From contig JBCCYL010000031.1 of the NCBI GenBank assembly GCA_039189765.1, forward strand, positions 1-64,000: DNA of 64,000 nucleotides, given 5' to 3'. Numbering within the stretch: the stretch's first letter is position 1; each line of letters starts with the position of its first letter. Made by a program: the position numbers and the translations under genes. The stretch is from Cyanobacteria bacterium P01_F01_bin.150. GTDB lineage: Bacteria > Cyanobacteriota > Cyanobacteriia > CAKZMO01. The notes beneath the pieces were generated by a model. That model saw only the letters and a list, made by a program, of their open reading frames with translations, had not been told where the DNA came from and searched no databases. Positions 17,616 through 42,127 of this stretch are shown here, in pieces.

Positions 17616-20522
17616 TCATAACCAGTTCCCCAATAATACAAAGGGAGACCAGTACCGGGGATGCCTGTAGGGATAACTGCCTTGAACCTCAAAATTTTTG
17701 ACGGATTGTTGGGCAAGTTGCAGTGCTTTTGTTTTACTTATGTTTTGATTGGGCAAATGGCGATAGAACTCAGCGATTAAGAGAGCCGTAGCCTGATCAT
17801 CGACAGACCAAAGAGAGGCGAGAGTACTGCGTGCCCCTGCTCGTACTGCAACCCCTGCTAGCCCCAGTGCTGCCCGTTCATCACCGCTAGCGGTTTGACA
17901 AGCACTGAGCACAAGTAGTTCGATCGCTTGGTCCAATCTCTGATTATTCTGACCCCGTAGCAATTCATGGAGGTCGTTCACATCAATTTTGCCGTCATGG
18001 GTCAGAATAAAAGTGTTTTCAGCCCGAGAGCTAAAGCGCCCATGAGTGGCTAAATGCACGATCGAAATAGGCTTTCGATCAATCTTTGCCTCAATTTCGG
18101 CTTCGGTAAACTCTTGATTTAAGAGTCTAATGGCTGAAGGTACAGCGGACGCGATCGCTTCTAGCTCTTGCTGAACGTTGGGTAGTGGCGGAAATCCCGA
18201 TCGACTTTCGGATAATCCTGCGGCCAGGATGCTGGGCAATTGACGAGGGGATGACGCTGTCTCCAAAAGTTGTAGCCCCGGAGAGAGCGAAACGGCATAG
18301 CGTTCCACTAGATACTGCTCGCCATCATAGAGTGCAGACATCGATACATTTCTAAGAACCCCATCCAAGACAAAAACAATTTGTTCAATGCCATGGGCAC
18401 GGAGTTCCGTTTCCAGTGGCTGGACCAACCACTGATAGAGTTGCTGCGCTGGGACCTTCACGCTTTTAACGGTATGGGGTTGAGTCAGTTTGCGACGGAA
18501 ATCAAGAGCCGTCTCTCTAACGTGCTGAGATGAAGCTGGGGTTGAATAATGTTTAAGCGTTCCTTCAGTGGAGCGATGCGTGGAGTCTTCTGACGTTTGC
18601 GATTCAGACTGAGGCAGTTTTAACACCACATCCAACCGATCTGGCAGGATAATGGAATAGAGAACCGCAGTGGTTTGTCCTTGTTGCTCAATGATTGCAT
18701 CTAGAGATTCTGTTTGGATATTTGAACAGGCATCTTGGAAAAAATTATCAAGTTCTGCCAGTTGGAGCGCCTCCAGCACATCCCGTGCTTTCCTTAAGTT
18801 TGCTTGAGATTGGGATTGGGGTTGGGACTCGGAAGAGTCCGTTGGGCTTAATAACAAATCGGTAAACTGACGATAGAGGGGTTCAATGCTCTCGCGAAAG
18901 GAGAATTGAATGTCCGTATCTAACACTGTCAGGTCAGAGCGCAATCCTTTAAGGGTATTGAACGCCGCAGTGTAGTAAGCGATCGCCTCTTCACGATGGC
19001 CATCCGCTTTCAATAGCCGTCCCATTTGCCACTGCCATAGATAGGCCAGATCAGGCGCTTGCAGTTCCTGGGCAAGCTGCATAGCCCTTTCGGTTACTGT
19101 TTTAGCGTTCGGGTCAGGGTGAGGATCGCGAAGGGGAGACGATATCCTATGGTCTCCGATCTGACCATTGCTGCCATATTGTGACGCTGTACGATATTTG
19201 ACGGCAAGGGATTGACCTTCAGGCGATTTGACTTCAAGATAATGGCCTAGACTCCCCCAAGCAAAGGACTCAGCACGATAATCTTTTAATGCCTGTGCCA
19301 TCTGAATCGCACGATTGAATCGCCTGAGCGACGGTTGTTCTGAGCGATCGCCCATATCCTGAGCTACAGACGATAAGCAGGCCAGATCCTGCGCAAAACG
19401 AACATTGGCATAAAAGGTAAAGCGGCTTAAGGGCAACTCTCCCAATCGCTGCTCGATCGCCATACGGTCATCGATGGAAAGGGGCTGTCCTAATGCGATC
19501 GCCAAACTTAAATGGTTGAGACGCGATTTTATTTCCAGCAATCGGTGCTGAGCGGTTTGCAACCCTCCACTGTCATGCTGGGCCACCTGCTGAACCGCCT
19601 GTTGATAATAGTCAGTGGCCTGTTGATAATGACGACGCACGGTATCCGTTAAATCCCTCTCGGACCAGTCCGGACAGTAGGATTGAGTCACTAGGGATTG
19701 ACGAGTGGCCAAAAGCTGTTGGTTGAGTTGGCGATCGCCCAACAGTCGTTCCAGATTGCCCAGGCTAAGCAGCGTTGCCGCATCAGGGGCCGAATGTAAA
19801 CTCAGGGCCAAGCTTAGACTCGTGTCTAGGGCAGCCCGCGCAGACTCATACTGTCCCATGGCGGCTTGGGTATTGCCCAAACTTCGCCATGCAGTCAGGG
19901 CTAGATCGGAAGGGGGTAAGGTGGTCAGTTGATCGTCTAGCGCTTCAATGCGATGGTTGGCCTGACGGTAGTAGCCCAATGCCCGTAGGGCTTGGATTTG
20001 GTTAATTTGGGTGCCCATTAGTCCAGCTTGGTCATCGAGCGCTCGGTAGGCTATCGCTGCGGATTGCCAGGCTGCAACGGCGGCCTCTAGCTGTCCCCAG
20101 GCAAATTGCAGTTCTCCTTGGGTATTCAAAACCTGAGCCTGAACCTGATAGGCACTTTCGCTATCGGGGCTAGTCGGTAAGAGACCAATGCTAGCGTCCA
20201 GGGCGGATTGGGATTGGGGGCGATCGCCCAGTTCCTGATAAACCAAGGCCAAATAGCTGAGCGTAAGCGCCTGATTTAGGGGCGCATTAAGGGTGTTATA
20301 AGTATCGCTGGCTGCCTGGAGAGGAGCGATCGCTTGGCTATATTGCCCTGCTTGGTAATACTCTCGCCCCTGTTGTACCAGACTCGCTGGGGCAATCGTA
20401 CTTGCCGGGACAACCGTACTCAATTGAGCATGGGTAGGGCTAGGAGGCCAGTGGAGACTCAAGCTCAGTAAAAACGCAGCCAAGAACCAACAAAGCCGTT
20501 TTAACCAAAGGAATCGTTCCAT
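17616..20522 (-). CDS. exported TPR-repeat + CHAT (caspase/HetF-like) protease
   Basis: Signal-like N-terminus (..FLAAFLLSLSL..THAQ), TPR helices, catalytic motifs IVHLATHG and LLVLSACQTA, terminal HPRYWSPFVLLGNWL. Confidence 0.93.
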   Translation of the reverse strand: MERFLWLKRLCWFLAAFLLSLSLHWPPSPTHAQLSTVVPASTIAPASLVQQGREYYQAGQYSQAIAPLQAASDTYNTLNAPLNQALTLSYLALVYQELGDRPQSQSALDASIGLLPTSPDSESAYQVQAQVLNTQGELQFAWGQLEAAVAAWQSAAIAYRALDDQAGLMGTQINQIQALRALGYYRQANHRIEALDDQLTTLPPSDLALTAWRSLGNTQAAMGQYESARAALDTSLSLALSLHSAPDAATLLSLGNLERLLGDRQLNQQLLATRQSLVTQSYCPDWSERDLTDTVRRHYQQATDYYQQAVQQVAQHDSGGLQTAQHRLLEIKSRLNHLSLAIALGQPLSIDDRMAIEQRLGELPLSRFTFYANVRFAQDLACLSSVAQDMGDRSEQPSLRRFNRAIQMAQALKDYRAESFAWGSLGHYLEVKSPEGQSLAVKYRTASQYGSNGQIGDHRISSPLRDPHPDPNAKTVTERAMQLAQELQAPDLAYLWQWQMGRLLKADGHREEAIAYYTAAFNTLKGLRSDLTVLDTDIQFSFRESIEPLYRQFTDLLLSPTDSSESQPQSQSQANLRKARDVLEALQLAELDNFFQDACSNIQTESLDAIIEQQGQTTAVLYSIILPDRLDVVLKLPQSESQTSEDSTHRSTEGTLKHYSTPASSQHVRETALDFRRKLTQPHTVKSVKVPAQQLYQWLVQPLETELRAHGIEQIVFVLDGVLRNVSMSALYDGEQYLVERYAVSLSPGLQLLETASSPRQLPSILAAGLSESRSGFPPLPNVQQELEAIASAVPSAIRLLNQEFTEAEIEAKIDRKPISIVHLATHGRFSSRAENTFILTHDGKIDVNDLHELLRGQNNQRLDQAIELLVLSACQTASGDERAALGLAGVAVRAGARSTLASLWSVDDQATALLIAEFYRHLPNQNISKTKALQLAQQSVKNFEVQGSYPYRHPRYWSPFVLLGNWL

Positions 20523-20532
20523 TGTCTTATTC

Positions 20533-23500
20533 CTACTGTTGATGCCGTGTGCACCCAGACCACATCATGACACGCTCATTGTGGGGAAGCTTAGTAACTA
20601 GCATGATCGTACCAGCATCATCCATGATCCAGTCTTGGGCTTCAGTCAGTGCAACAGATTGTGACATATGGGTCGCTGGAGCATTGCGATGGGACGGGGA
20701 TGCGGGCGAATAATGGGACCTTGTCCATATCGTTTCATCAACCTGGGTAAGGCGACGGTCTCGCCAAAGATCATCGTTGAAAAACAGATCGCTGGGTCTG
20801 GAAGGCAAACCACCACGACCAACAGCAACAAAATTGCTCTCACGGGAGAGGTCGCACAGTGTGCTGTCAAGCAGATCTGTGACATCCACAAGAGCGCTTG
20901 GCAGTTCGGTCAGCCCACGGCTAGGATCGCTGCCAGGGGTCTCAACAACCACCGTACCATCCAGACCAAATCTGGAACTCGCTGTAATGTCGCTGAGCAC
21001 AGTCCGTTGAGGACGAAACGCAAGGCCAAACAAGCCATCGGTGGTGATGCCAATGTTTCCGCCTTGGCCTTCAAAGGCATTCGCTACAATATCGCTGTTT
21101 CCCTGGGGTTGGGCCAAAATAAAACCAGAGGTGATGATGATATCACCGCCATTACCGCCGCTCTGATCCGTACCGGCTTCGGTGGATATTAAACTATTGT
21201 TCTCCATTATCAAGAGGTCACTTACATCGAGCATGATGTTCCCCCCAGCACCAGAGTCCGTTTCAGTAGAAATGCGACTTCGTTGGCCCAGCATGAGGGA
21301 TTGAGCATCAATAGCGATCGCTCCAGCACGCCCCTCTTGCCCCGTTGCCTCAACTGAAATGGATGCTCCATCATAGAGTCTAATGCGGCCTGGGGTCCGA
21401 ACCTTTAGGTTACCGGCAGAACTCGCTAAAACGTTGGCCGTTCTGGTTACTCCAGCAATCGTCAAGTTGGCATTGGTTTCTGCACTAATGCGATTAAGCA
21501 GAATCTCACCGTCAGCCATCAGGCGAATATTTCCTCCCTGTAAGATGGCGGTATCCGTTGGGCCAAGACTCAACTCGGAAAATGTAAAGGTGCCAGCACT
21601 GGCATTTAACTCCGACTGTTCACCCAATTGCAAGGCTCCGTCAGCATGAAACTGGATAGGGCCCCCCGTTGTCCTAAACTGGGCTTGTCCAGAGGTGGTG
21701 TTTTGCCCAACAGCCCCCACCTCTGCCACGGATCGTCCAGACGAGTCAACACGAGCATTAAGCTGAATCGTTCCGGTATCCAAATCCTCCCTCATCCTGT
21801 CACCGCCTATTCTTACCTGAGTAGACAAGGCGATCGCTCCGCCCTGACTGGACACATTTTCTACTTTGCCCCCTACGGCCTCTCCTCCCTCTCCGCTATT
21901 CTGATTCGTTTCCGCCAATGCCTCTACCAAGAGACGGGCAGAGGTGTCCGCATTGGCAGACGATTGTCCAGCCGCAACAGCAGAGGAATTTAGGCTCCCG
22001 ACCATAAGCGTGCCAATAGAGGAGCCGGTGGTCACGTCGCCTGTTCTTACCTGAGTGGAAAGGGCGATCGCACCTCCCTGGCTAAAGACATCGTTCACTT
22101 GCCCTGCCGCTGCCGTTCCTCCATCTCCGCTGTTCGTCACATTTGCGCCAGGCGCATCGGCAAATGTCCCCGCCCCTGCCCCTGCATCGGCATCGGCAAA
22201 GGTGGCTGCATTAACATTGCCTATTTGGAGGTGGCCAATCGCAGAGTGACTCGTAACCGGTCCCGTTCTCACTTGAGTAGAAAGGGCGATCGCCCCCCCT
22301 TGACTAGAGACATTCTCCACTGTTCCCCCTGTTGCGGTTCCCCCCTCACCGATGTTCTCAACGGTCGGTACATTGCTAGACGCGTTTATCTGGGGAAGCA
22401 ATATAAAATTGGACGTCGCTACAGATGCAGACGCAGAACCGGACCCAAAAATACTGGACGCATTAATGTTGCCTGTTTGAAGGGTACCGATATCCGATGA
22501 CGCCCCTACGGAACCTGTTCTTATCTGAGTGGAGAGAGTAATCGGTCCGGCCTGATTCGATATATTGGCGATGCTACCTGCCGTTGCATCGCCACCATCG
22601 CCGCTGTTCTCACTGGTGGCCAAAACTCCCCGCTCAAACGTAGTAGCAGACGCCTGCGCTGATGCAGAGGCATCTCCAATTGCGGATGCCGAGGAATTAA
22701 GATCCTCCACTCTGATCATGCCAAGATTAGATGCAGTGGTCACATCCTCCGTCCGTACCCAGGTAGACAGCATAATTGGTCCGCCCTGACTGGAGATCAC
22801 CTCCACCTGACTCCCCGTTGCCATTCCCCCATTCCCGATATTTTGCCTGGTCTGGGTCTTACCTAAAAAATCAGTGTTGGCATCAGCGTTGGCGCTGGCG
22901 TTGGCATTAGCATTAGCAAAGGACATGACTGTTCCTGTTTGGATTGTGCCCATTGTTTGGTTAGGCGTCAAAGCAGAGGCCGCAGTAACACTGTCCATCC
23001 TTAAGCGAGTGAAGAGGGCGATCGCCCCTCCCCTAGAACGAGCGGTTGCCTGTCCGGCAATCGCAACACCACCATCTCCACGTCCATTTCTAGTCGAAGC
23101 ATCAACAGAGGCATCAGCCTCAGACCGTGAGACAGCCCTAATATCGCCTGTTGTGATAGTGCCCAGCGATGACGCTACTGCTTGGCCACGAGCATCAACC
23201 CTTGTGACGATGCGGATATCTCCCCCCCTCGCCATCGCTCGGGTATCCCCTGATTGCACAAACTGGGTGCCATCAGGCTGAATCACTTGGATTTGTTCCC
23301 CCTGCGTTTGGGCAGTAGCGGAGGTATTAAGCAGTTGAGTGGTAATATTGCCGCCGGATAATAGAGTAATATTGCCGCCAAATGCCTGAGCTGCATCCCC
23401 CACAATTACTCCCATGCCAAACAGGTTTCCGGCCCGTGCAAACGTTGTAAGGGAGCCGGAAATGTTAATGTCCCCACGGGAATCAATCACAACATCCCCG

Positions 23501-24834: not shown

Positions 24835-25239
24835 CGGTTTATTTCTAAATATTTTATATTGACAGTATTCGAGGTACTCAAGAATAAAATGTTTTTCCCT
24901 TTTTATATAAATTTATATGCCCTGAAAGCATTGAAGTCAACCAATTAAGAGCTAACTTATTTATTATCCTTATATAATAGAGGTTAATTCCTGAAAATAA
25001 CCATCAAATCAAACAAAAATATAAATTATGGTGAACAACCATACAGATGCTTACCTTAATAATTCCTTAAAAAATAAGTTGAGAAAAATAACGCGATACT
25101 AGAGTCCGCCCTAGTATCGCCACTTAACACACGGACTAACCTCCTATAAAAGGCCTATTTGATCTATAAATAGACGGTTGAACGTGTTGCCAGACTTTGC
25201 CCGCCACCACGTTCAAAAAACAACCTAGAGCATGACGAA

Positions 25240-25521
25240 TTAAAATATTCTATCGATAATGCTTACAATCGTATTGCCAATCCCTCTAAAGAAATCACCC
25301 GTTCCTGATACCAATTTGCGATGAAAATCATAAACTCGCTTGCCAAGGTATCGTCCATTATCCCATGCATAAACAATCAGATCTCCATTGGCTTCAAAGG
25401 TCTTTTGCATATAATTCCGTCCATTTTTGTAAAGATTTTAAATCTGACGACCACTTGAGAAAAAATCGATAATTCTAGCGAGCTTCCCTAGGTTATCAAA
25501 CTCTTTTCGAAGATAATTTCT
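25240..25521 (-). pseudogene. C-terminal remnant of an unknown protein with one in-frame stop
   Basis: Manual translation RNYLRKEFDNLGKL...RQI*NLYKNGRNYMQKTFEANGDL...GDFFRGIGNTIVSIIDRIF*; stop at 25438-25440; begins right at the hairpin 25522. Confidence 0.5.
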
Positions 25522-25549
25522 GTGTGTCCCCGCTACGCGGGGGACACAC
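25522..25549. repeat. REP-like GC hairpin (family shared with 35618-35660)
   Basis: GTGTGTCCCCGC-TAC-GCGGGGGACACAC; about 40 bp downstream of the stop of the 1344-aa gene. Confidence 0.7.
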
Positions 25550-25589
25550 CTTACAAAGAGTTCAGTACTCAGCTGTGCAGAGTATAGGT

Positions 25590-29721: not shown

Positions 29722-29751
29722 TTATCAGGGCGATCGCCAAAAGTTCTGCAA
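29722..29751 (-). promoter_or_regulatory. candidate alternative-sigma promoter TTGCA-N17-CCTGATAA
   Basis: About 98 nt upstream of the 29624 start; same boxes and spacing at 30963-30992 and 31046-31075. Confidence 0.5.
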
Positions 29752-29775
29752 AGATTTTTCCCAGTTATCCAATTC

Positions 29776-30962: not shown

Positions 30963-30992
30963 CTATCAGGGCGATCGCCAAATGTTCTGCAA
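30963..30992 (-). promoter_or_regulatory. candidate alternative-sigma promoter TTGCA-N17-CCTGATAG
   Basis: About 93 nt upstream of the 30870 start; near-identical to 29722-29751 including the spacer. Confidence 0.5.
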
Positions 30993-31045
30993 AATCATAG
31001 CTTCTCCCTATTTTTAATTTATTTTGCATTTTTTACGCTAATCAA

Positions 31046-31145: not shown

Positions 31146-31835
31146 ATGACAGATATTCAAGACAATCCGAAGCAAGACAGCCCGAGGCACAATGCCCGAA
31201 TGCAAGCTGATCTGATATCAATAGTGGCCGAATCCTGTCAGCATCCTGAAGGCAGTGCCAGACGTCAAAAAGGATTGACCCAAATTATTCGACAGGTTCG
31301 TCCCAAGCTTTGGCATGAAAATACCCCCTATTACGAAGATGCGTTACAGCAAACGTGGATCTACTTTTGTCGAAATCTGTGCCGGAGTCATACCGGAAAA
31401 CAGTATGACCCTGAGCAAGCCTCGCTGGTCACCTGGCTTAACGCTTACCTTAAGCGCCGTTTACAGGATGGGTTTATTGCAGCTCAAAAGCAAAAGGCAA
31501 CAACGGTTTCAGCGTTCGCTGATACTGGAGACGGTGAGTCAGGGTCACGGAATCTGATTGACTCGATTGCCAGTCGTCCCAGCGTTCCTCCCATGCTCGA
31601 TCGGGTCAAGCAGTGGGTTGAAACAGACCCCGATGGTTCGCTCCGTAAGGTTCACATTGAGGGCCATCCCCAGGTGAACTGCCAGATGTTACTGTTGCGG
31701 CGATTGCCTCCAGAGACGCCATGGAAAGAGCTAGCCGCTGAATTTGGATTAACCGTTGGTAGCCTGAGCAGCTTTTATACCCGTCAGTGTCTGTCTCGGT
31801 TGCGGGCGTTTGGAGAATCAGAAGGATACCTTTAG
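31146..31835 (+). CDS. sigma-70 family (ECF-like, DUF1822-associated) sigma factor
   Basis: Region-2-like YEDALQQTWIYFCRN..YDPEQASLVTWLNAYLKRR; C-terminal HTH WKELAAEFGLTVGSLSSFY; ATG 31146 after GAGG. Confidence 0.85.
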   Translation: MTDIQDNPKQDSPRHNARMQADLISIVAESCQHPEGSARRQKGLTQIIRQVRPKLWHENTPYYEDALQQTWIYFCRNLCRSHTGKQYDPEQASLVTWLNAYLKRRLQDGFIAAQKQKATTVSAFADTGDGESGSRNLIDSIASRPSVPPMLDRVKQWVETDPDGSLRKVHIEGHPQVNCQMLLLRRLPPETPWKELAAEFGLTVGSLSSFYTRQCLSRLRAFGESEGYL

Positions 31836-31881
31836 CGGCTGTTTGCGCTTAAAGGATTTACAAGAAATAGCCAATACTTTT

Positions 31882-31912
31882 GATGGGCACACGTTCGTTT
31901 TGCCCATCCTAC
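31882..31912. repeat. REP-like hairpin after the sigma gene
   Basis: GATGGGCA...TGCCCATC followed by CTAC. Confidence 0.5.
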
Positions 31913-32016
31913 GGAAGCGGTGTGTTATGGCCAAAATAGATCCCTAAATAGCATTGGCTAAATATCCAATAGATCATGTCAACTCAATAAAAACGCAAAC
32001 TTAGGGAGAGAAAGCA

Positions 32017-33090
32017 ATGGTATATGGCCATTATGAAACGGATGAGGCATTAGTCTTGCCGATTACCCAGCAAGGTAGAGATATTGCCCAGCAGTTTGTG
32101 GATCAGAACCCGATATCGAGTCATGGCGAACGCATTCGACTCAATACCCTGGCCGTTTGGGTCGTGAATGACTATCTCACCTTAATGGGCATTCCCACCC
32201 ACCTGGCCCTGAGCGATAGCTGGAATCCGATGATGCGTTTGGCTGGAGATATGGCTGATTTAGAGGTTGACGGGCTGGGAAAGTTAGAATGTCGGCCCAT
32301 TCGCGAAACTGATCAAGAATGCGACGTTCCTCCCGAAACCTGGGAGTTGAGAATTGGTTATTTAGTCGTAGAAATTGACAAGACCTATCGGCAGGCCAAA
32401 CTGTTAGGCTTTGCCCCAACGGTCACCAGCGAGACCCTATCCAGGCAACGTCTCCGCCCTCTGGATGATTTTATTGATCACCTAGCAGACCTCCGCCAGA
32501 CGGCCTCAGCGATCGCCCCATCCCCCATCCCCCCGGATGAAGTTCCCGAACGCCCATTCAACGCAACGGAATCTGAAACCGCCAGCTCAATTCAATCGTT
32601 GGTCCCAACGGATTTGGCACAATGGCTAAATAATATCGTTGAGGCCGGATGGCAGCAACTGGACCAATTCTTGAATCCCCAGACCCTGGCTCCTGCTTAT
32701 GCCTTTAGGAGTACGAATGACCCTATGGATGAACAAGGGACGGGAGAGGGCAGAGAAGATAGCGAGGACATTGATATTGAGCGGGCCAAACTGGTTGACC
32801 TGGGCATCCAACTCGGCGCTTGTCAGGTCGTGTTGGTGGTTCAGCTCAAGCGAGAATCTAGCCAAACAACCGACATTACGCTGCAACTCTACCCTGAGCC
32901 AGGACAAGCCTTTCTTGCCTTAGGCGTTGACCTCCAAGTGCTGGACGACGGTGGTTCAGTGTTTTTACAAACCCAATCGCGGGATGCAGATAATTACATC
33001 CAACTGAAATTTAGTGGCGATCGCTCCGAGCAGTTCACCGTCCGCATTGCCTTAGGAGAGGCCGCAATAACAGAATCATTCATTATTTGA
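32017..33090 (+). CDS. DUF1822 family protein
   Basis: NTLAVWVVNDYL, SDSWNP, ADLEVDGLGKLECRP, RIGYLVVEI, LLGF; LAQWL..GWQ; C-terminal RAKLVDLG...DNYIQLKFSG..E.F. Confidence 0.9.
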   Translation: MVYGHYETDEALVLPITQQGRDIAQQFVDQNPISSHGERIRLNTLAVWVVNDYLTLMGIPTHLALSDSWNPMMRLAGDMADLEVDGLGKLECRPIRETDQECDVPPETWELRIGYLVVEIDKTYRQAKLLGFAPTVTSETLSRQRLRPLDDFIDHLADLRQTASAIAPSPIPPDEVPERPFNATESETASSIQSLVPTDLAQWLNNIVEAGWQQLDQFLNPQTLAPAYAFRSTNDPMDEQGTGEGREDSEDIDIERAKLVDLGIQLGACQVVLVVQLKRESSQTTDITLQLYPEPGQAFLALGVDLQVLDDGGSVFLQTQSRDADNYIQLKFSGDRSEQFTVRIALGEAAITESFII

Positions 33091-33124
33091 TTCGCAATCC
33101 CAGTCAGCACAAGAGGACCGGATA

Positions 33125-35590
33125 ATGAGTAAAGTGGTCGTCCTAAAAGTGGGTGACGGTAGCGTTCAAACGGGATTTCCGGTGACGTTGCAAATGGGTG
33201 AAGAGGGATACCAAACGGCGATCGAAGTCACGGGCGCGTTTCCCCCGGTCCCTTTGTTGCTGGAGGAATACCAGCGCTGGCAAACGGCCTATCGAAGTTT
33301 GGGCAATGCCTATCGACTGGAAGCCAAGACGGGATATGTCACCAATGTGTCTGTGGTCGGAGACTGCCATGACTTAGCCCAGTCGTTTAGCGATCGCTTC
33401 AACCAATGGTTTCAATCCGATGCCGTCCGTCCCATTCGGGAAACATTATTGGAACAGCTCGATCCCAGCGAGGTTATACGCATTATTCTCCAAACCAATA
33501 GTGCCGACCTCAAGCGGTTTCCATGGCATCTTTTGGATTTCTTTGAACGCTATCCTCGGGCGGAAGTGGCCCTCGGTGCGGTGTCATTTGCACCAGCGGG
33601 GCGATCGCCCATTCCTGGAGACGCCATTCGCATTTTGGCGATTTTAGGACATGCCCAAGGTCTGGATATTGAGCAGGACCAGGCGCTCTTAAATTGCCTA
33701 CCCCACGCCGATGTTCACTTTTTAATCGAGCCGTCCTACCCAGAACTGAATGAAACGCTGTGGGATGCTCAAGGGTGGGATATCCTCTTTTTTGCAGGCC
33801 ATAGTTCTAGTCAAGGACGATCCTCGTTTAATCCTGCATCGAATACTGCATCGAATATCACAACAAATACCGCATCTGGCTTAGAAGGATGCATTGCCAT
33901 AAACCCAGAAGAAACCCTGTCCATAACGCAATTGCGATATGCCCTCAAAACTGCACGACAGCGAGGGTTAGGGATTGCAATTTTTAACTCCTGTGATGGA
34001 TTGGGACTAGCGGATGGATTGGCCGAACTGAACATTCCCGAAGTTTTGGTGATGCGGGAACCGATACCGGACCAGGTGGCCCATGAATTTCTGAAGAGCT
34101 TTTTAGCCGCCTTTGCCCGAGAATCTCCCCTATATTTGGCCGTGCGGGAGGCGAGGGAGCGCTTACAGGGATTGGAAGGTCAGTTTCCCTGCGCGACCTG
34201 GTTACCTGTGATTTTCCAAAACCCCGCAGAGAACCCGCCAACATGGCAAACCCTGTATGAGGAGCGAGTGCAGAAATGTAACGTCTCTGAGCCAGAATCC
34301 AGTCGATCAGGACCCAGCCCCTCAGATCCCAGGGTTCTCCAAGAACCCTGGGATCTACCGTTTCCGCTATCGTTCAAACAGCGGACCCTCGTTGCCTTGA
34401 TGACCAGTACTGGCGTTGCTGCTCTGTTGACGATGGTTCGGCTATTGGGCGGTTTGCAACCCTTGGAACTGAAAGCCTATGACTGGATGTTGACCATGCG
34501 GCCTCTGGAACAGCCCGATCGACGCATTGTGGTGATTGAAACCAGTGCCGACGATGTGGACGCATCGGTGACCCTCTCTAACGAGGTTCTATATCAATTA
34601 TTGGCAAGCCTTGACACCTATCAACCCCGATTAATTGGCCTGGATTTATATCGGGATTTTTCGGCGAGTCCCGATCATAATGAGCTTGCTCAGCGTCTGG
34701 GCACAACAGAAAACCTCGTTTCTATTTGTCAGTCTAGCGATACGGCGATCGCCATTCGAGGGATTGAACCCTCACCCGATATTCCCTTTGCTCAAATTGG
34801 CTTTAGTGATTTCCTTGCTGATGGTGATGGGGTACTGCGGCGTCATTTAGTGGCCATGACTCCGGAACTCACCTCTCCCTGTCAATCTAGCTATGCCTTT
34901 AGTACCCAACTAGCGCTGCGGTATCTGGTGGTAGCGGGCTATGGTGAGCCGCTATGGACAGATGATGGATTATTCAAGTTGGGCGATACCGTCCTTGAGC
35001 CAATTGCCGCCCAATCCGGGGCCTACCAATCTATCGACGCAGAGGGCTATCAGATTCTGCTGAATTATCGCAGTCTGTCGTCCCCCAAACAAATTGTCGA
35101 AACCGTCCCGCTGCAACAGATCCTCGATCGGACATTACCCAACAATGCCCTAACGGACAAAATTGTTTTAATCGGTCGTACAGATAATGACTCTGGGGAT
35201 TTATGGCGTACGCCCTATGCCCCCTCCAATCAAATTACAATAAGCGTTCCAGGAGTGTTTGTGCATGCCCATATGATTAGCCAAATGCTGAGTACCGTTA
35301 TGGACAATCGGCCTCTGTTGCAGCCCTGGCCGGAATGGGGTGAGATAATGTGGATCCTATTATGGGCATGGGTGAGTGGGGGATTGCTGCTGCTGCCGGG
35401 TTGGGACACGCCCTCCAGCCCCAAAGTTGCAAAGCTAGCCCTCGGGGTCCTGGGGACAGAAATCGGTCTGTGGGGAGTGACTTGGATAATGCTAGTTCAA
35501 AAGGGGGTATGGGTTCCGATTGTTCCACCCGCGATCGCGATCGCCCTTACTGCCATCATCATACTTCGCATTAAACCGAAATCTAAATAA
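33125..35590 (+). CDS. membrane protein: N-terminal CHAT protease, TM, CHASE2 sensor, 3 TM
   Basis: WDILFFAGHS (His) and IAIFNSCDGLG (Cys); LQPLELKAYDW..DRRIVVI, IGLDLYRD, IGFSDFLADGDGVLRR, PGVFVHAHMISQ. Confidence 0.92.
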   Translation: MSKVVVLKVGDGSVQTGFPVTLQMGEEGYQTAIEVTGAFPPVPLLLEEYQRWQTAYRSLGNAYRLEAKTGYVTNVSVVGDCHDLAQSFSDRFNQWFQSDAVRPIRETLLEQLDPSEVIRIILQTNSADLKRFPWHLLDFFERYPRAEVALGAVSFAPAGRSPIPGDAIRILAILGHAQGLDIEQDQALLNCLPHADVHFLIEPSYPELNETLWDAQGWDILFFAGHSSSQGRSSFNPASNTASNITTNTASGLEGCIAINPEETLSITQLRYALKTARQRGLGIAIFNSCDGLGLADGLAELNIPEVLVMREPIPDQVAHEFLKSFLAAFARESPLYLAVREARERLQGLEGQFPCATWLPVIFQNPAENPPTWQTLYEERVQKCNVSEPESSRSGPSPSDPRVLQEPWDLPFPLSFKQRTLVALMTSTGVAALLTMVRLLGGLQPLELKAYDWMLTMRPLEQPDRRIVVIETSADDVDASVTLSNEVLYQLLASLDTYQPRLIGLDLYRDFSASPDHNELAQRLGTTENLVSICQSSDTAIAIRGIEPSPDIPFAQIGFSDFLADGDGVLRRHLVAMTPELTSPCQSSYAFSTQLALRYLVVAGYGEPLWTDDGLFKLGDTVLEPIAAQSGAYQSIDAEGYQILLNYRSLSSPKQIVETVPLQQILDRTLPNNALTDKIVLIGRTDNDSGDLWRTPYAPSNQITISVPGVFVHAHMISQMLSTVMDNRPLLQPWPEWGEIMWILLWAWVSGGLLLLPGWDTPSSPKVAKLALGVLGTEIGLWGVTWIMLVQKGVWVPIVPPAIAIALTAIIILRIKPKSK

Positions 35591-35617
35591 AGGGGAGTAT
35601 ACTCCCAACGGCTGAGA

Positions 35618-35660
35618 TTATGAGGTGTGTCCCCCGCGCAGCGGGGGACACACCTCATAA
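35618..35660. repeat. perfect 20-bp-stem hairpin (REP-like) between the CHASE2 and DUF928 genes
   Basis: TTATGAGGTGTGTCCCCCGC-GCA-GCGGGGGACACACCTCATAA. Confidence 0.85.
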
Positions 35661-35678
35661 AAAGTCCAGCATCCAGCC

Positions 35679-36554
35679 GTGCATAGTATAAAGAGGGTAG
35701 AAAAAATGCTAATCAAACACATGGGAATCAGACGAGTTTTAATCAAGCCACTATCAATTCTGACCCTGTCGGGTCTATGGGGCATCGTTAGTAGCTCGTT
35801 TGGAGGATTAGTATTACCTGCGTGGTCCACAGAACCTCCACTCGCCACCCCGAATCCCTCCAAACAATTTGTGCCACCGCCACCGCCGACAACCTTGGGG
35901 ACCCCTCAGGGGCGATCGCGGGGTGGCGGCAGTCGCGGCGACTGTCTCTGGCCAGAGGACTCACCTCCATTGACCGCCTTAGTTCCAACCAATAAAAACG
36001 AATTGGCTGGGCTTGAGTCGGTGTGGAGCTATACCATGAGCGATCGCCCCACTTTCTGGTTCTACCTGCCCTATGAATTAGAGGCCACCACGGACGTTCT
36101 TTTTATTTTGCAGGATGGTGACGGCAATACCCTAGAGGCATATTCCCAAATGTTTCGCCCTTCCTTATCTCCAGGCATTGTCAGCATTACACTACCGGAC
36201 ATTGCTCCGCCCCTGGACGTTGGCAAAGGATATCACTGGTTTTTCCAGGTTTACTGTGACGAAAACCCCGATTTTGTAGATGGATGGGTCTATCGAACAG
36301 CTCCAGAAACCGAACTAGACCAACAGCTCCAAGCCGCAGTGCCTAAAGACCAGTCGGCTATCTACGCGAACAACGGTATTTGGCAAGAAGCGATCGCATC
36401 CCTCGCTCGGTTACGTCAGGCTGATCCGGAGGATGGGGCGATCGCGTCAGACTGGCGGCAGTTACTGGAATCGGTTGGACTGGAGGCGATCGCGGACCAA
36501 CCATTTACAACCTGTTGTGAACCACCGCTATCTTCACCAAGTTTTGTAAATTAA
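35679..36554 (+). CDS. DUF928 family exported protein
   Basis: Hydrophobic N-terminus, FVPPPPP..GTPQGRSRGGGSRGDC, LTALVP, PTFWFYLPY, YANNGIWQEA, WRQLLESVGL; start may be 35706 or 35721. Confidence 0.9.
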   Translation: MHSIKRVEKMLIKHMGIRRVLIKPLSILTLSGLWGIVSSSFGGLVLPAWSTEPPLATPNPSKQFVPPPPPTTLGTPQGRSRGGGSRGDCLWPEDSPPLTALVPTNKNELAGLESVWSYTMSDRPTFWFYLPYELEATTDVLFILQDGDGNTLEAYSQMFRPSLSPGIVSITLPDIAPPLDVGKGYHWFFQVYCDENPDFVDGWVYRTAPETELDQQLQAAVPKDQSAIYANNGIWQEAIASLARLRQADPEDGAIASDWRQLLESVGLEAIADQPFTTCCEPPLSSPSFVN

Positions 36555-36760
36555 TTATTTTTGCTAGGGTCTGAAAAGATACCCAAAACCAATTAGTCTT
36601 AAATCTAAGATCGATCCTATCCCTAGACATATTGAACGCCATCATCTTTTCGATAGTTTAAAGTCTGATTTAAATCAGAAAACTTATCGATTGAGGGGAG
36701 GTTTTGTATGTCGATTTTATTCCCCCATAAAATCCCCTTTTTACATAGGTCGTGATAAAA

Positions 36761-39070
36761 ATGTTTCCATCTTCAATAATAAATAATGCCTCGAATAGCA
36801 ATAGCGCTATTCTGAACAGTTCCAAATCAACAGAACTCTCTGTAGTTGATGAACTAGCTGGCTTCACCCCTTTTACTTCTTTTACATCAGAACAGTCCCT
36901 TCAACCCTTTGAAACTCTCAATGAGTTTACCGGAGAATCTGTGACACAGACAGTCAAACGTTGGGTGGGGCGCTCCAGGAAGAAAATCAGCGGGGATTTG
37001 ACGGCTCAGAAAAATTTTACTATCAGGGAAAAGGATAAAACCCCAATTGCAGGGACAAATAATGACGACAGATTTAATATTAAGGCTGGTACAAACAACA
37101 AAAATTTACAAGGAAAAGGAGGCAATGATAGGTTTATTCTTAAGAAAAATACTCAAAGGAATATCTTAAAAGGGCAAAAGGGGAATGATACATTCAGTCT
37201 TAAGAAAAATAGTCGAAAGAATACATTAAAAGGACAAGGCGGGAATGATATATTCGAAGCCCAGAAAGGCAAAGAAAATACCATTTTGGGGATGGGTGGA
37301 CAAGATACGATCTACGCTGGAAATAAGGATAAAAGAATAGCAGGTGGCGGTGGCAATGACATTATTTATTTGAGAACCAATGCTGTCGCAGTTCTGGGGG
37401 GTGGGGGTGACGATGAATTCCACCTTACGAGTCAGTCTTCAAATAATACAATTAACGATTTTCAGAAGAAGGGCCGCGATCGCATCCACCTCAACATTGA
37501 CGGTCTAACGAACTTTGACCAACTGACGTTTAGTCAAAACGGTAACGACAAAGCGATTAGCTTCAATGGAACAACCTTAGTCACCTTAAAAAACACCACC
37601 AAGGCACTCTCCCTCGATGACTTTGTGGGGATTGAACCAGCCCGGACCCTCCTGCCGTCAGTCTCGATTGACAATACGCCTAAAACGATCAGCGAAGAGG
37701 CTGGGAGCGTTACGTTTACCGTTCGCCTCAGTGGAGAGACGACGGAACCCATCAGCGTTAATTTTGAAACGTCAGGCAGCGCGATCGCCACCCAAGACTA
37801 CACCCTACCAACCACCAACACCCTTACCTTCAACCCAGATGACCCACTGGAGAAAACCATCACAATTGACATTATTAATGACAGTGATCCAGAACCGAAT
37901 GAGACTCTGATGGTTAACTTGAGCAGTCCCAATCCTGCTAATGTAATAATCACAGAAGCTAAAGGAATGGCCACCATTCTGGCTAACGATGGAGCGCTAC
38001 CGCTGCTATTGCCGTCGGTAAGTATTGATGGAGTTGCGGTTGATGAGGATGGGGGAACGGCCTTGTTTCTTGTCAGTCTTAGTAACCCTAATCAAGACCA
38101 GCCTATCACCATTGATTATAGAACCGCTGATGGTACTGCTATCGCCGATCAGGACTATATACCTAAACAAAACAGCCTTACCTTTAACCCTGGAGAAAGC
38201 AGCAATCAACTGATCGAAATTGAGATTATTGACGATAACCAGCCGAATGAAACCGACGAAACGTTTAAGGTGATTCTGGAAAATCCAAGTCCTTCTAATT
38301 TAGAGATTAAAACCCCTGAGGCAACTGCCATCATCAAAGACAATGATGAGAGCACTTCTGATGGGAGCAAAAACAATGGTGGTGGGTCAGATGTTCAACT
38401 CAGCTCTCTTCTGGGGGAAGATGTCTTCGGCAACCCAGAGATTATATTCGACTTGACGGCGGCAACGGCTTCCGGAACGCGGATCAACGATCAAGATACG
38501 GATGAGAATTTTGGCCTGTTTAGAGGCGTAGTACAGGATTTTTCCTATCTTTTACCTGGCAAAACAGCCCCCCTTAGCCCAGAAGATGCTTTCTTTAGAA
38601 AAAACGAAGCAACCTTTTTCTTCAAACAATCCGGTGATTTAATTGCTCGATTGATTAATCAAAATCAAACCCTACAATATGAATTCAACGTACAATCCGG
38701 CGGCAATGCAAATGCCTTTCTGAGTTATACCTTTGAATTCCAATTAAATGATATTCTGGCTGTTCAGGATGAGTCTGGAACACTCTTGTTTCCAACCTTA
38801 GATGCAGTCCGCGACAATCTCGTCAATTCTATTGTTGGCTTTTTTGACCTGTTAGATGGGCAAATCGGCGAAAATAACGCATTTAATGGGGTGCCCTGTG
38901 CCGATCCAGACCTTGAGGATGGGTTTGACGATTCCGGGCCGTGCAAGGTTTTGAGTGAAGGCTTCTATACTTTATTTCCCGAAGTTTTTGCCAATGCCGA
39001 GAATCCATTCCTAAATATCGGACAAGATCCAGGTGATTTTATATTAGGTCGCCGCAACATAGGAAACTAG
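36761..39070 (+). CDS. Calx-beta domain protein with RTX-like GGND repeats
   Basis: LQGKGGNDRF/LKGQGGNDIF repeats; two Calx-beta domains (SEEAGSVTFTVRLS..A.ATQDY; DEDGGTALFLVSLS..TADGTAIADQDY). Confidence 0.85.
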   Translation: MFPSSIINNASNSNSAILNSSKSTELSVVDELAGFTPFTSFTSEQSLQPFETLNEFTGESVTQTVKRWVGRSRKKISGDLTAQKNFTIREKDKTPIAGTNNDDRFNIKAGTNNKNLQGKGGNDRFILKKNTQRNILKGQKGNDTFSLKKNSRKNTLKGQGGNDIFEAQKGKENTILGMGGQDTIYAGNKDKRIAGGGGNDIIYLRTNAVAVLGGGGDDEFHLTSQSSNNTINDFQKKGRDRIHLNIDGLTNFDQLTFSQNGNDKAISFNGTTLVTLKNTTKALSLDDFVGIEPARTLLPSVSIDNTPKTISEEAGSVTFTVRLSGETTEPISVNFETSGSAIATQDYTLPTTNTLTFNPDDPLEKTITIDIINDSDPEPNETLMVNLSSPNPANVIITEAKGMATILANDGALPLLLPSVSIDGVAVDEDGGTALFLVSLSNPNQDQPITIDYRTADGTAIADQDYIPKQNSLTFNPGESSNQLIEIEIIDDNQPNETDETFKVILENPSPSNLEIKTPEATAIIKDNDESTSDGSKNNGGGSDVQLSSLLGEDVFGNPEIIFDLTAATASGTRINDQDTDENFGLFRGVVQDFSYLLPGKTAPLSPEDAFFRKNEATFFFKQSGDLIARLINQNQTLQYEFNVQSGGNANAFLSYTFEFQLNDILAVQDESGTLLFPTLDAVRDNLVNSIVGFFDLLDGQIGENNAFNGVPCADPDLEDGFDDSGPCKVLSEGFYTLFPEVFANAENPFLNIGQDPGDFILGRRNIGN

Positions 39071-39139
39071 CGCTGGAGATGATCTCGTTGCATTAGACCT
39101 GATTTATTCCTAACCTGACTGCATATTTGACTTGCACCC

Positions 39140-42127
39140 ATGATGTCATTAGCCAGATACACTCATCGTTATTTTTTAACAGGGTTAGCCACTGGGCTGG
39201 GGAATTTAATGCTGATGTTTGCCCCGGTCTCCACGGCCAAGGCAGACATTATTCCAGATTGGACCCTGGAACAGGCCTCAACGGTTCCCTCGGATTGTCG
39301 GGTATGCATTATTAGTGGGGGAACAACTCGGGGGGAGTATCTATTTCACAGCTTTAAAGATTTCTCCCTAAACAGGAATGAGGTCGCTCTTTTTGGGGCG
39401 AGTGATGATATCAACACCATTGTGAGCCGGGTTACCGGAGACCGTTCCTCCCGCATCGATGGTGCGATTCAAGCCAATACGACCCTATTTTTTATCAACC
39501 CGCAGGGTATTGTCTTTGGCCCAAATGCTAGTCTCAACATTTCAAACGGTTCATTTTTGGCCACCACTGCTGATTATCTCGAATTTGATACTGGGCAAGG
39601 TGAGTTTCAGTTCAGCGCCAATAATCCTGAGGATGTGCCTTTGTTGACCATAAATGCCCCCATTGGTTTGGGCTTTGGCAATGCTCCAGGTTCTATTCGT
39701 CATCATCCCGATTCCCGATTATCCCTGCCTGCCAATGAAACGCTGACAATTATCGGAAATGGTATTCGTCTTAACGAAGCAACGATTAAATCTGAGTCAG
39801 GCCGGATTGAACTGGGTAGTGTTGCTGCCAATAGCAGGGTTGGTCTAGAGGCTGTAATCGTAAATTCATCTCCTGCTGGCGAAACAAATCCTCAAAATAA
39901 TAGAACCACAGCCAATGCGATCGCCTCAGGCTGGACCATAGACTATAGCGCTGTGAACACCTTTTCTCCGATTGACTTAACCAATGGGTCTCAGCTCAAC
40001 GTAGCGGGAAATGAAGGGGGAGAGATTCAATTGCAAGGGAGTCAGATTCGTATTGCGAAAGAAAGTATTGTCCGTTCAGAGACAACTGAACAGGGCAGCA
40101 GTGGTCGCATTCGTCTACAGGCATCAGACTCTATCCATCTCAATCGCTCTGGCAGTGTTCGGGTTTTAGTGAGAGAAGAGGCGAGGGGAAACGGTGGCCA
40201 ATTAACGATCGCGGCCCCCCGACTTACCATTCGCAATGGGGCCGATCTCTCAACCAGTGTTTTGGGTCGGGGTCGGGGTGCAAATCTTCGGGTGAGGGTA
40301 CGCGATCGCATTTTACTCCAAGGTATTTTGAAACCAGATGGCCATCAGGAACCTGAACCGACAGGGATATTTGCCCAAATGGCCGAAAATTCCATTCGAG
40401 GCAGAGGGGGAACGATTGATATTCAAACCAATAATTTAATGGTTCAAGATGGTGCACAGATTACAGCCAGCACCTTTAGCCGAGGCAGTGCAGGCTCTAT
40501 CATGCTTCGGATTTTCGATACGCTTCATATGGTGGGAGCATCATTTTCCACTGGAGATGTCCCCAGCGGCATCTTGAGTCAAGTTGAAGAAGGGTTCAAT
40601 GCAACAGGGGATGCAGGGAATATCCAGATCGATACTAAACGATTAGTTCTGCTTGACGGTGCCCAAATTTCTTCTGCAGCTCGGAATAGTGGAAATGGCA
40701 GACATGTCACTATTCAGGCAACAGAGTCTATTCTGCTCAGAGGAACATCGCCAAATGCTACCGCTATTGGTGGCAGCAGCGGTATTTTCGTGTCTGCGGA
40801 ACCTGAATATATAGACGAACAGAGTCAGGAGCCGATCCTCTCCACGGGAAGGTCCGGTAATCTCATCATCAACACTCAGCATTTAACCGTTGAACAGGGT
40901 GCCAAGTTAGCAGCGAATACATTCGGGACTGACAGGGGGGGCAATTTAACAATTACTGCCAATCAGATTATGATCCAGGACGGAGGAACTGTTCGTGCAG
41001 GCTCATTGGTAGGTCCCCCGGTAGAGGCTAACGATAACACCGCTATTCCAGATCGATTGGCAAGTTCCCTGGTAGAGGCTAGCGATAACACTGCTATTCC
41101 AGCGCGAGGCCAAGGTGGCAGACTAACAATTAACGCGACAGAAAGGATTACGGTTAGCGGGGAAGGACAAATTGGGATGTTACCGGACCTAATCTCGAGT
41201 ACTATCCTGGCTGAGGCTCAAGGTAGTGGAAATGCTGGAGATATTATCATCAATACTCCTCTGCTGTCGGTGATGGAAGGTGCCAATGTGACCGTGAGTG
41301 GCCGGAAAAGCCAAGCGGGAACGTTAACCATTGATGCTGACATCATTACTCTCGACGGTGGGCAATTAGAGGCCCGCACTGCCCGTCTAGGTAGGGCCGA
41401 AGGAGCCATCATAAATCTAATCCCTAGTAGTATTTTGCTATTGCAGAATGAAAGTCAAATTTCCGCCCAAGCGTCCAACAATGCCAACGGTGGCAATATT
41501 AATATTGATGCCAGCCAGGGATTTGTGATGACCACTGCTGCAGCCAACAGCGATATTGAGGCTATTGCTAATGAAGGGAATGGAGGTCGGGTTGAGATTG
41601 AAACTCTGGGGCTGTTTGGGTTAGAGGAACGCGATCGCCTCACGCCGCTGAGCGATATTACCGTAAGCTCAAGCTTTGGCTTAGCGGGAGAGATCGTTCT
41701 CCGCACTCCTAACTTAGACCCCAGCCAAGGAACGGTCCAACTCCCCAACAGCCTAGTTGATGCATCAAGGTTATTGGCTCGGAATCTTTGTGAACTTTCC
41801 AGCGCCAGTAGTTTTATTGCCGTAGGGCGTGGTGGCTTACCGCCAACTCCCAGTGAACTCTTTACTGGGGACGATTTGTGGCAAGACCACCGGCTTGTTT
41901 ATGTGGATGAAACGATGGGAAGGGTTGCAAATTCGTCCAATACCATAGGAGCTATCCCCAACAACGCCCCCAACAATAACTCTGAAGCGATCGCAAATCA
42001 GATACCTAACATCGAGGCCCAAGGCTGGATGAAAAATGCGTCGGGTTCCATTGTTCTCGTAGGACATAGCAGAGGCTCTACGCCAGGAATAAGTGCGACA
42101 ACCTGTACACCGGTAAATAGGCTGTAA
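39140..42127 (+). CDS. filamentous-haemagglutinin/TPS-domain exoprotein
   Basis: YLFHSFKDFSL, IVSRVTG, FFINPQGIVFGPNASL; GxGGxIxI beta-helix repeats; C-terminal C..SSFIAVGRGGLP..EAQGW. Confidence 0.9.
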   Translation: MMSLARYTHRYFLTGLATGLGNLMLMFAPVSTAKADIIPDWTLEQASTVPSDCRVCIISGGTTRGEYLFHSFKDFSLNRNEVALFGASDDINTIVSRVTGDRSSRIDGAIQANTTLFFINPQGIVFGPNASLNISNGSFLATTADYLEFDTGQGEFQFSANNPEDVPLLTINAPIGLGFGNAPGSIRHHPDSRLSLPANETLTIIGNGIRLNEATIKSESGRIELGSVAANSRVGLEAVIVNSSPAGETNPQNNRTTANAIASGWTIDYSAVNTFSPIDLTNGSQLNVAGNEGGEIQLQGSQIRIAKESIVRSETTEQGSSGRIRLQASDSIHLNRSGSVRVLVREEARGNGGQLTIAAPRLTIRNGADLSTSVLGRGRGANLRVRVRDRILLQGILKPDGHQEPEPTGIFAQMAENSIRGRGGTIDIQTNNLMVQDGAQITASTFSRGSAGSIMLRIFDTLHMVGASFSTGDVPSGILSQVEEGFNATGDAGNIQIDTKRLVLLDGAQISSAARNSGNGRHVTIQATESILLRGTSPNATAIGGSSGIFVSAEPEYIDEQSQEPILSTGRSGNLIINTQHLTVEQGAKLAANTFGTDRGGNLTITANQIMIQDGGTVRAGSLVGPPVEANDNTAIPDRLASSLVEASDNTAIPARGQGGRLTINATERITVSGEGQIGMLPDLISSTILAEAQGSGNAGDIIINTPLLSVMEGANVTVSGRKSQAGTLTIDADIITLDGGQLEARTARLGRAEGAIINLIPSSILLLQNESQISAQASNNANGGNINIDASQGFVMTTAAANSDIEAIANEGNGGRVEIETLGLFGLEERDRLTPLSDITVSSSFGLAGEIVLRTPNLDPSQGTVQLPNSLVDASRLLARNLCELSSASSFIAVGRGGLPPTPSELFTGDDLWQDHRLVYVDETMGRVANSSNTIGAIPNNAPNNNSEAIANQIPNIEAQGWMKNASGSIVLVGHSRGSTPGISATTCTPVNRL

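Follow-up and report, generated by a model that had tools for sequence, protein, structure and literature searches.

A recurrent cyanobacterial locus with a predicted CHAT-CHASE2 protease switch acting on a sigma factor through DUF1822

Gene content and recurrence of the locus

The first 64,000 nucleotides of contig JBCCYL010000031.1 of Cyanobacteria bacterium P01_F01_bin.150 (the window) contain a locus in which genes for a sigma-like protein, a DUF1822 protein, a receptor-protease with CHAT and CHASE2 domains and a DUF928 protein follow one another on the forward strand (Table 1). These products probably form a one-step transmembrane protease switch, which would work like HetF-PatU3-HetZ without membership in those families. 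The host is probably a filamentous cyanobacterium, judging from the presence of hetZ and patU and the names of its relatives. All ten open reading frames (ORFs) described in an earlier note, made from the sequence alone, were present at the places and on the strands given there, and Pfam bore out the TPR-CHAT, TPS, DUF1822, CHAT-CHASE2, DUF928 and Calx-beta domains.

Table 1. Features of the locus, in window coordinates
Feature	Position	Strand	Basis or remark
TPR-CHAT protease, 968 aa	17616..20522	-	Pfam CHAT E=7e-61 and TPR; exported by hydrophobicity window
TPS (FHA-like) exoprotein, 1433 aa	20533..24834	-	Pfam TPS; TIGR01901 above cut-off
Terminator-like hairpin, 12 pairs, T tail	25093..25120	-	Between repeat gene and first TPS gene
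Repeat protein, 1344 aa	25590..29624	-	65-aa tandem repeats; candidate sigma target
Promoter candidate 1 (GCAGAA - 16 nt - TGATA)	29723..29752	-	About 100 bp before repeat gene
Orphan protein, 262 aa	30082..30870	-	C-terminal membrane segment; candidate sigma target
Promoter candidate 2, near-identical to candidate 1	30964..30993	-	About 95 bp before 262-aa gene
Divergent extracytoplasmic function (ECF)-like sigma factor, 229 aa	31146..31835	+	Weak TIGR02937 match; complex model; loci
DUF1822, predicted anti-sigma	32017..33090	+	Pfam; alignment-based model
Receptor-protease, CHAT and CHASE2	33125..35590	+	Pfam; N-terminal domain EACC2 by architecture
DUF928, putative exported partner of CHASE2	35679..36554	+	Pfam; adjacency to CHASE2
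Calx-beta / calcium-binding-repeat protein, 772 aa	36752..39070	+	Pfam Calx-beta and weak RTX
Second TPS exoprotein, 995 aa	39140..42127	+	Pfam TPS; same C-terminal tail as first

This genome has about 20 copies of the core order sigma, DUF1822, CHAT-CHASE2, DUF928, which is also widespread among other cyanobacteria. Searches with our own profiles gave 20 DUF1822 proteins, 21 CHAT-CHASE2 receptors, 36 DUF928 proteins and 15 sigmas of the window class. Of 121 sampled genomes of the class, 75 have DUF1822, frequently with more than one copy, and none of 14 control genomes has it. The linkage greatly exceeds what chance would give: TPR-CHAT lay within 10 kb of 14/21 CHAT-CHASE2 genes versus 9.4% of 6374 unlabelled genes, and a TPS gene within 10 kb of 15/21 versus a background of 8.2%. 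The frequent co-occurrence of these domains in cyanobacteria, mentioned in the earlier note, was seen both within the genome and in three locus sets, and the neighbourhood analysis proposed there gave linkage that is kept across genomes.

Set (a) comprised the best 80 of 588 loci, mostly from Nostoc and not independent. A receptor was located within three genes in 80/80 and DUF928 was the next gene in 72/75, while TPR-CHAT stood directly upstream of DUF1822 in 33/79, and sigma directly upstream in only 7/79 and within four genes in 33/79. Set (b) comprised 60 loci from 49 genomes, hand-picked among the DUF1822 matches listed (there were 87 further matches); a sigma-like gene was directly upstream of DUF1822 in 59/60. 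Set (c) comprised 40 of 94 sigma matches, from which family f7 and the majority of previously used loci had been removed (L244 is a repeat of L106, and L226 overlaps L167); DUF1822 was the next gene in 38/40, with a receptor in 34 and DUF928 in 31. The place of the Calx-beta gene in the locus is not conserved, and its product is regarded as accessory. At one locus of this genome (L014, G000:C61:35001-49816) caspase-GUN4 and kinase-like genes split DUF1822 from the receptor, and a 140-aa TPS fragment follows DUF1822.

The linkage itself is already known from a study of EACC2-caspase systems (PMC8195603; this and the other papers are cited from the parts of them available). These systems have a constant N-terminal domain followed by a caspase or CHAT domain, a variable C-terminus which includes CHASE2, and ECF sigma and DUF1822 neighbours. 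The authors proposed that autopeptidase activation feeds the sigma factor, and described DUF1822 as a TPR protein. In supplement file 3 Fischerella operons are given in which the receptor precedes 'TM+beta_rich+TPRs' and 'TPRs+CASPASE' genes. The earlier note, which knew of no mechanism for this gene set, is to be corrected in that the set is in print with a proposed peptidase-to-sigma role. In its available part PMC8195603 names no anti-sigma, cut site or promoter, and DUF928 has 0 occurrences in 12 of its 13 supplements. Added here are the sigma gene upstream of DUF1822, the complex prediction, the linker arginine and the promoter candidate. Three papers mention the domains in passing (PMC5587647, PMC9679502, PMC2853523), the part examined of the ECF classification supplement (PMC7826278) contains no DUF1822, CHASE2 or DUF928, and a literature search, with most subscription papers outside its reach, met DUF1822 in only 2 papers and found it nowhere described as an anti-sigma factor or linked to a cut site or promoter.

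The sigma factor, DUF1822 and the receptor-protease

The sigma gene likely starts at ATG 31146 (229 aa), the ORF opening at TTG 31116. TIGR02937 gave weak matches to its product and to 5/11 paralogues (19-24 bits for the latter), and 1035 relatives were collected. Structure neighbours in the Atlas that carry Sigma70_r2 gave TM values of 0.35-0.40, and profile-profile comparison of the window class with the ECF class gave E=8e-4 at probability 24. Three sigma classes alternate upstream of DUF1822. One is an ECF sigma above the TIGR02937 cut-off (108 and 74 bits), which replaces the window-type sigma in sister loci, and a second matches the ECF class by profile at probability 99.3. The label given in the earlier note is kept on account of the position upstream of DUF1822 and the complex model; it is not upheld by TIGR02937, where the protein scores below the cut-off, or by any Pfam sigma family. 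This indirect evidence suggests a sigma factor, predicted to bind RNA polymerase and to transcribe from specific promoters. It was not matched by the HetZ family models (NF037963-5), the profile-profile comparison with HetZ giving E=2.5e-4 at probability 43. Upstream of diverged DUF1822 genes, 460-496-aa proteins were encountered (L018:185-1585, L019:8743-10125, L017:4523-5935, L015:1482-2972) which appear by profile to be an unnamed sigma-like family: they have no NCBIfam match, the two put through Pfam had none there, and they match the ECF-like class at probability 99.3.

The DUF1822 model was alignment-based, with a predicted local distance difference test (pLDDT) score of 83, and replaced a single-sequence fold that reached only 34.6. 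It consists of a PD-(D/E)XK-fold domain (residues 11-166), a loose linker and an Ig-like domain (252-357). Residues 35-165 matched I-Ssp6803I (2ost_A; Z 9.8, root-mean-square deviation 2.9, 115 aligned) and further nucleases at Z 6.4-8.4, with Hjc resolvases at 8.4, and the modelled domain has the PD-(D/E)XK core fold. Foldseek with the model returned Ig-like matches only. No TPRs are present in the model, in contrast to the TPR protein of PMC8195603. Sequence searches of the PDB with DUF1822 and DUF928 gave nothing informative; 7q58, the sole hit below 0.001 among the DUF1822, sigma and DUF928 searches, was discarded, no stretch of it passing alone.

The catalytic motif of PD-(D/E)XK enzymes is D ... 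(D/E)-x-K. DUF1822 does not carry it in full: D81 (113/115 relatives) and E91 (114/115) are conserved, and the position of the catalytic lysine is Arg93, an arginine in 112/115. The nuclease fold bears on an alternative in which the locus serves conflict or cell death, the receptor cleaving itself (as proposed in PMC8195603) and the cut freeing a latent DUF1822 nuclease, with sigma as a side branch. The structural matches and the two conserved acidic residues speak for it, as do receptor relatives with STAND/WD40 domains, also found in PMC8195603. It is nevertheless improbable: besides the arginine at the lysine position, D81 and E91 are present in only 11/19 and 12/19 paralogues, the predicted contact with sigma is made by this very domain, and promoter candidates are placed before genes for sigma, DUF1822 and secreted proteins.

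The prediction of a sigma:DUF1822 complex, proposed as a check in the earlier note, came out positive, with a score of 0.87 in three runs versus 0.00 for the best of 3 controls. The score mark was reached by 116/157 solved versus 2/215 mismatched pairs, counts that hold roughly here because the prediction used its own alignments. The contacts of the runs agree to at least 70%, and the partner pLDDT is 74. The interface is predicted between residues 11-157 of DUF1822 and residues 35-75 and 183-229 of sigma, that is, both sigma ends. Its coverage of sigma regions 2 and 4 is as expected of an anti-sigma factor and supports binding of that kind. DUF1822 might instead be a scaffold which delivers sigma to the receptor, sigma being released or destroyed without a cut in DUF1822. 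The complex model gives binding and says nothing of inhibition, and 18/59 loci of set (b) have no CHAT receptor within three genes, which would suit a scaffold. We consider this very improbable, as the predicted interface covers both DNA-binding regions of sigma and the linker arginine described next is best read as a cut site.

Arg231 of DUF1822 (bases 32707-32709) is located in the linker, where pLDDT is below 50, in the context YAFR|S. It is kept in 19/19 paralogues, in 115/115 close relatives and in 31/31 proteins of the same sigma class. It is the single invariant residue of a linker that varies elsewhere, for which a cut site is the best reading, and by analogy with HetF DUF1822 would be an anti-sigma factor that is cut after Arg231 by the CHAT domain of the receptor.

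The receptor has one membrane segment before CHASE2 (422-441) and three after it (741-813). Few residues lie beyond the last of these, in agreement with the statement in the earlier note that the protein has no kinase or cyclase domain. The His/Cys dyads reported there for both CHAT domains were confirmed (H226/C290 in the receptor, H827/C875 in TPR-CHAT). Both proteins have the dyad of CHAT, clan CD peptidases and are predicted from it to be active. The inner dyad is intact in 25/25 and 89/89 proteins. HetF is a closer match to this CHAT domain (E=2e-23, probability 99.5) than the outer CHAT is (E=2e-7). About 160 conserved residues precede CHAT in the 25 paralogues and were named EACC2 from the architecture and not by profile comparison. 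CHASE2 with its membrane helices occupies the place of the variable C-terminal sensor, and relatives carry amino-acid-binding, PsbP-like or STAND/WD40 domains there. Like the EACC2-caspases of PMC8195603, the receptor has a C-terminal CHASE2 sensor and neighbouring sigma-like and DUF1822 genes, and the domain before CHAT resembles theirs by architecture.

A parallel can be drawn with HetF-PatU3-HetZ of Anabaena PCC 7120. HetF cuts PatU3 after Arg117 in TNYR|S (PMC9457339), and PatU3 in turn inhibits HetZ, an ECF sigma factor (PMC13342950); in its available part the latter paper names neither HetF (main text) nor DUF1822 (supplements). Both systems have a membrane-anchored cytoplasmic CHAT with a periplasmic domain, and an inhibitor gene right after sigma whose product is cut after Arg (PMC9457339), both inhibition and cut being predictions in the present case. 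The HetZ sigma drives the gene of its own inhibitor, the counterpart here being the motif before DUF1822 at other loci, and its promoter is bipartite (TCCGGA-N16-17-TGNA) with a spacing similar to that of GCA(G/T)AA-N16-TGAT (PMC13342950). The two systems are not orthologous, since hetZ, patU and hetF-like genes are present in the genome at other places. HetF differs in having periplasmic TPRs and not CHASE2, and its N-terminus has no match to receptor residues 1-120; the receptor gave no full-length match to the HetF profile NF045509 and is absent from the 20 HetF matches, of which the best is a gene on C30. The hetZ-patU pair was found at L025:652-3064 and the hetF-like gene at G000:C30:61268-64105, with two further HetZ-related genes at L026 and L024.

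In the PatU protein of 258 aa the arginine cut by HetF is residue 117, which is kept in 21/21. An hhalign comparison of PatU with DUF1822 (E=0.095) set Arg231 on this invariant arginine, and the C-terminal parts gave E=0.014, with 0.008 for a control against DUF928. These results do not establish homology of PatU and DUF1822: neither single-sequence nor profile comparisons were significant and the control scored as well. DUF1822 is the nearest named family of PatU in the Atlas at 0.84, which is a lead only. In the type III-E CRISPR system Csx29-Csx30-CASP-sigma the inhibitor is cut outside the domain that holds sigma, and decay of the fragment follows (PMC10028731). A CHAT protease, a sigma factor held by the N-terminal domain of an inhibitor (predicted here) and sigma motifs in the locus are common to both; there, the trigger is target RNA on Cas7-11 in the cytoplasm (PMC10028731). 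No Cas families were found in a Pfam scan of the 32 window proteins.

Promoter candidates and the proposed switch

The window contains two copies of a 30-bp element (0.00 expected), which lie 94-100 bp upstream of the two genes that diverge from sigma and are its only matches in the 10.6-Mb genome. At L189, which has the closest sigma (71%), both halves and their spacing are kept while the spacer sequence has changed; the site precedes an FG-GAP/RTX gene and then a TPS gene. The strict window motif did not generalise past this closest orthologue. In the loosened form GCA(G/T)AA-N16-TGAT(A/T/G) it was found at spacer 16 in 20/43 loci of the window sigma clade, compared with 0-2 at spacers 12-20. 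Outside the 588-locus set it was present at 7/19 sigma-clade loci (5/17 minus the two founding loci) and at 0/32 and 0/33 loci with other sigma classes. Among the 40 new loci of set (c) it was present at 7 with spacer 16, at 0-2 with other spacers and at 3 in antisense (shuffles: mean 0.3, largest 2 of 200). Five of these hits are before the sigma gene, and most lie 30-34 bp before a start. In Nostoc loci the motif stands about 36 bp upstream of DUF1822. Related sequences from Nostoc overwhelmed a de novo search for gapped words, and a scan for the sigma-70 consensus was at chance (28 vs 26.4). Back-to-back Nostoc modules sharing one sigma gene were also seen (L058, L067, L068, L071, L072, L075, L077, L082), with the motif before DUF1822 of the sigma-less copy in 7/8.

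The two genes behind the window elements are the candidate targets. The 262-aa protein has a single C-terminal membrane segment (238-256) and, in a search at 144-459 aa, no relatives besides itself. The repeat protein is encoded by a 195-bp DNA repeat in 6.9 copies; of its 58 relatives, 22 were put through Pfam, which showed extracellular domains of the Calx-beta, RTX, FG-GAP or subtilase kind among them. Its C-terminal 400 or so residues are conserved without a Pfam family and also end large proteins with subtilase and DUF4114 domains. The terminator-like hairpin parts the 262-aa and repeat genes from the TPS and TPR-CHAT genes; it is a pattern match only, the whole scan giving 14 sites vs 18.9 in shuffles. 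As a correction to the view of the earlier note that sigma drives the surface-protein genes, the motif here precedes the genes for the 262-aa and 1344-aa proteins and not the TPS genes, of which the one on the reverse strand lies beyond the hairpin.

Based on these observations, the following switch is proposed. At rest, the nuclease-fold domain of DUF1822 would clamp sigma regions 2 and 4, as in the predicted complex. CHASE2, with DUF928, may read a periplasmic signal and turn on the cytoplasmic CHAT domain of the receptor, which, judging from conservation and HetF, would cut DUF1822 after Arg231. The N-terminal piece would then be degraded by other proteases, as has been proposed for Csx30 and PatU3. 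The freed sigma would transcribe from a small number of nearby promoters with the pattern GCA(G/T)AA-N16-TGAT: here those of the repeat protein and the 262-aa protein, elsewhere those of the sigma gene, the DUF1822 gene or secreted-protein genes. The inner half of the scheme in the earlier note, in which the inner CHAT cleaves DUF1822, is in this way backed by gene order, the complex prediction, the linker arginine, the closeness of CHAT to HetF and the promoter candidate, and its cleavage step is predicted from sequence. DUF1822 would then be a new type of anti-sigma factor built on a nuclease fold, and through the module filamentous cyanobacteria would have as many as about 20 channels from sensor to sigma in parallel. 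Its study could help to find out what CHASE2 senses and how the heterocyst switch HetF-PatU3-HetZ arose, and the predictions are narrow: one residue (Arg231), one binding domain and one promoter.

Several observations weigh against the proposed switch. The window sigma has no Pfam sigma match and scores 14.1 bits with TIGR02937 against a cut-off of 42.9, Pfam Sigma70_r2 is found at E<=0.01 in only 3/125 of its relatives, and PDB sequence searches with it gave no significant match. The conserved D81 and E91 of DUF1822 are outside the listed sigma interface and are left unexplained. Arg231 is kept in only 65/81 sequences of the widest alignment, and falls outside the predicted sigma-binding domain; as the cut would be behind this domain, the N-terminal piece needs the second degradation step. 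A CHAT receptor is within three genes of DUF1822 in only 41/59 loci of set (b). The motif was loosened post hoc, it is missing from 33/40 new loci, and 6 of the 7 hits there belong to one family that was present in the discovery set too. Across the genome it shows no enrichment (6 sites with spacer 16 and 5-11 with other spacers), and it is absent before the sigma, DUF1822 and TPS genes of this window.

The outer arm and neighbouring genes

Membrane and export assignments were made with a hydrophobicity window, which is a heuristic and not a signal-peptide program. An N-terminal hydrophobic segment was found in TPR-CHAT (residues 5-23), DUF928 and the second TPS protein; none was found, at the threshold used, in the first TPS, Calx-beta and repeat proteins. 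By family, the segment was present in 55/63 and 36/41 TPR-CHAT, 25/36 and 82/82 DUF928, 1/20 and 0/88 DUF1822 and 0/15 sigma proteins.

DUF928, TPR-CHAT and TPS genes accompany CHASE2-type receptors and not other receptors. With CHASE2-type receptors of set (b), DUF928 was the next gene in 25/25, TPR-CHAT was in the locus in 16/26 and TPS in 11/26, compared with 0, 0 and 0 at the 15 loci whose receptor lacks CHASE2 by profile (13 of these receptors were put through Pfam; one has a diverged CHASE2 and seven have amino-acid-binding domains). In this genome a CHASE2 gene lies no more than 1.5 kb from 30/36 DUF928 genes. The first TPS gene is upstream of TPR-CHAT with a gap of 10 bp. Sixteen TPS-CHAT fusions were found in the genome, 14 of them without the tail, and TPR-CHAT follows 13/51 tail-bearing TPS genes versus 30/6054 background genes. 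The outer dyad is intact in 82/83 genome paralogues and 44/44 in other genomes. The TPS domains score above the cut-off. No TpsB transporter, the partner of a TPS exoprotein in two-partner secretion (type Vb), was found in the window, and 8 were found elsewhere in the genome. The envelope genes are greatly expanded: our own profiles gave about 80 genes of TPS type and 79 of stand-alone TPR-CHAT type, and contig C113 has seven TPS genes in tandem.

Two candidate cut sites were noted from sequence. Arg86 of DUF928 (bases 35934-35936) is located in a Gly-rich stretch before the folded part and is kept in 110/114. The tail of the first TPS protein has Cys 1327 and Cys 1428 around a GR-GGLP motif (R1340), that of the second has R897 between Cys884 and Cys989, and GRGG is present between two Cys in 41/57 TPS tails. 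A periplasmic TPR-CHAT with an intact dyad is known from the ECF sigma circuit DdvA-DdvS of Myxococcus xanthus (PMC11506125), where it differs in being part of a membrane anti-sigma; in the present locus TPR-CHAT is a protein of its own, putatively exported, and the predicted inhibitor is soluble.

The earlier note had placed a second protease step outside the membrane. In such a relay, which adds to the switch proposed above and does not replace it, the TPS tail would engage TPR-CHAT, DUF928 would be cut after Arg86 or the tail after GR, and the product would switch CHASE2. This step is a tentative possibility, for which the linkage to CHASE2-type receptors, the TPS-CHAT fusions and gene pairs, the conserved Arg86 and the position of TPR-CHAT directly upstream of DUF1822 in the mostly Nostoc loci of set (a) may be cited. 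Against this, the sigma-anchored loci of set (c) have TPR-CHAT in only 14/40 and TPS in only 8/40, the Arg preference of the outer CHAT is assumed while craspases cut after other residues (PMC11506125), and the order of steps is not readable from gene linkage. TPR-CHAT could also serve only to mature or release the TPS filament, and so be part of the output, with CHASE2 and intact DUF928 sensing something else. TPS and TPR-CHAT are fused or adjacent also far from any CHAT-CHASE2 gene, CHASE2 proteins without CHAT have DUF928 within 1.5 kb in 13/23 but TPR-CHAT within 10 kb in only 6/23, and the tail arginine has a conserved Cys on either side, like a residue in a cleavable loop. Maturation is on balance somewhat unlikely; the conserved Arg86 of DUF928 and the presence of TPR-CHAT inside the sigma operon of many Nostoc loci without TPS are left unexplained by it. 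The TPR-CHAT/TPS pair goes with the CHASE2 arm, as input or output, and an outer cleavage step may occur. A full trans-envelope relay is unlikely, in which the TPS tail recruits TPR-CHAT, the cut in DUF928 becomes the CHASE2 signal and HetF-PatU-HetZ is a specialised descendant of the module; it would comprise two Arg-specific caspase-like proteases and make CHASE2 a receptor for a processed protein.

Elsewhere in the window, a NACHT/STAND NTPase with HEAT repeats and an NCC-H domain is encoded in a low-GC stretch (26-3451; 39-44%), and genes for phosphoketolase, glycogen phosphorylase and acetate kinase form one run (6680-12999), an ordinary fermentation cluster. Two similar pairs of RND pump and membrane-fusion genes are present in opposite orientation (42149-46950 and 58088-62931). 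Two short leucine-rich-repeat ORFs (15524-15976 and 57311-57853) are possibly fragments.

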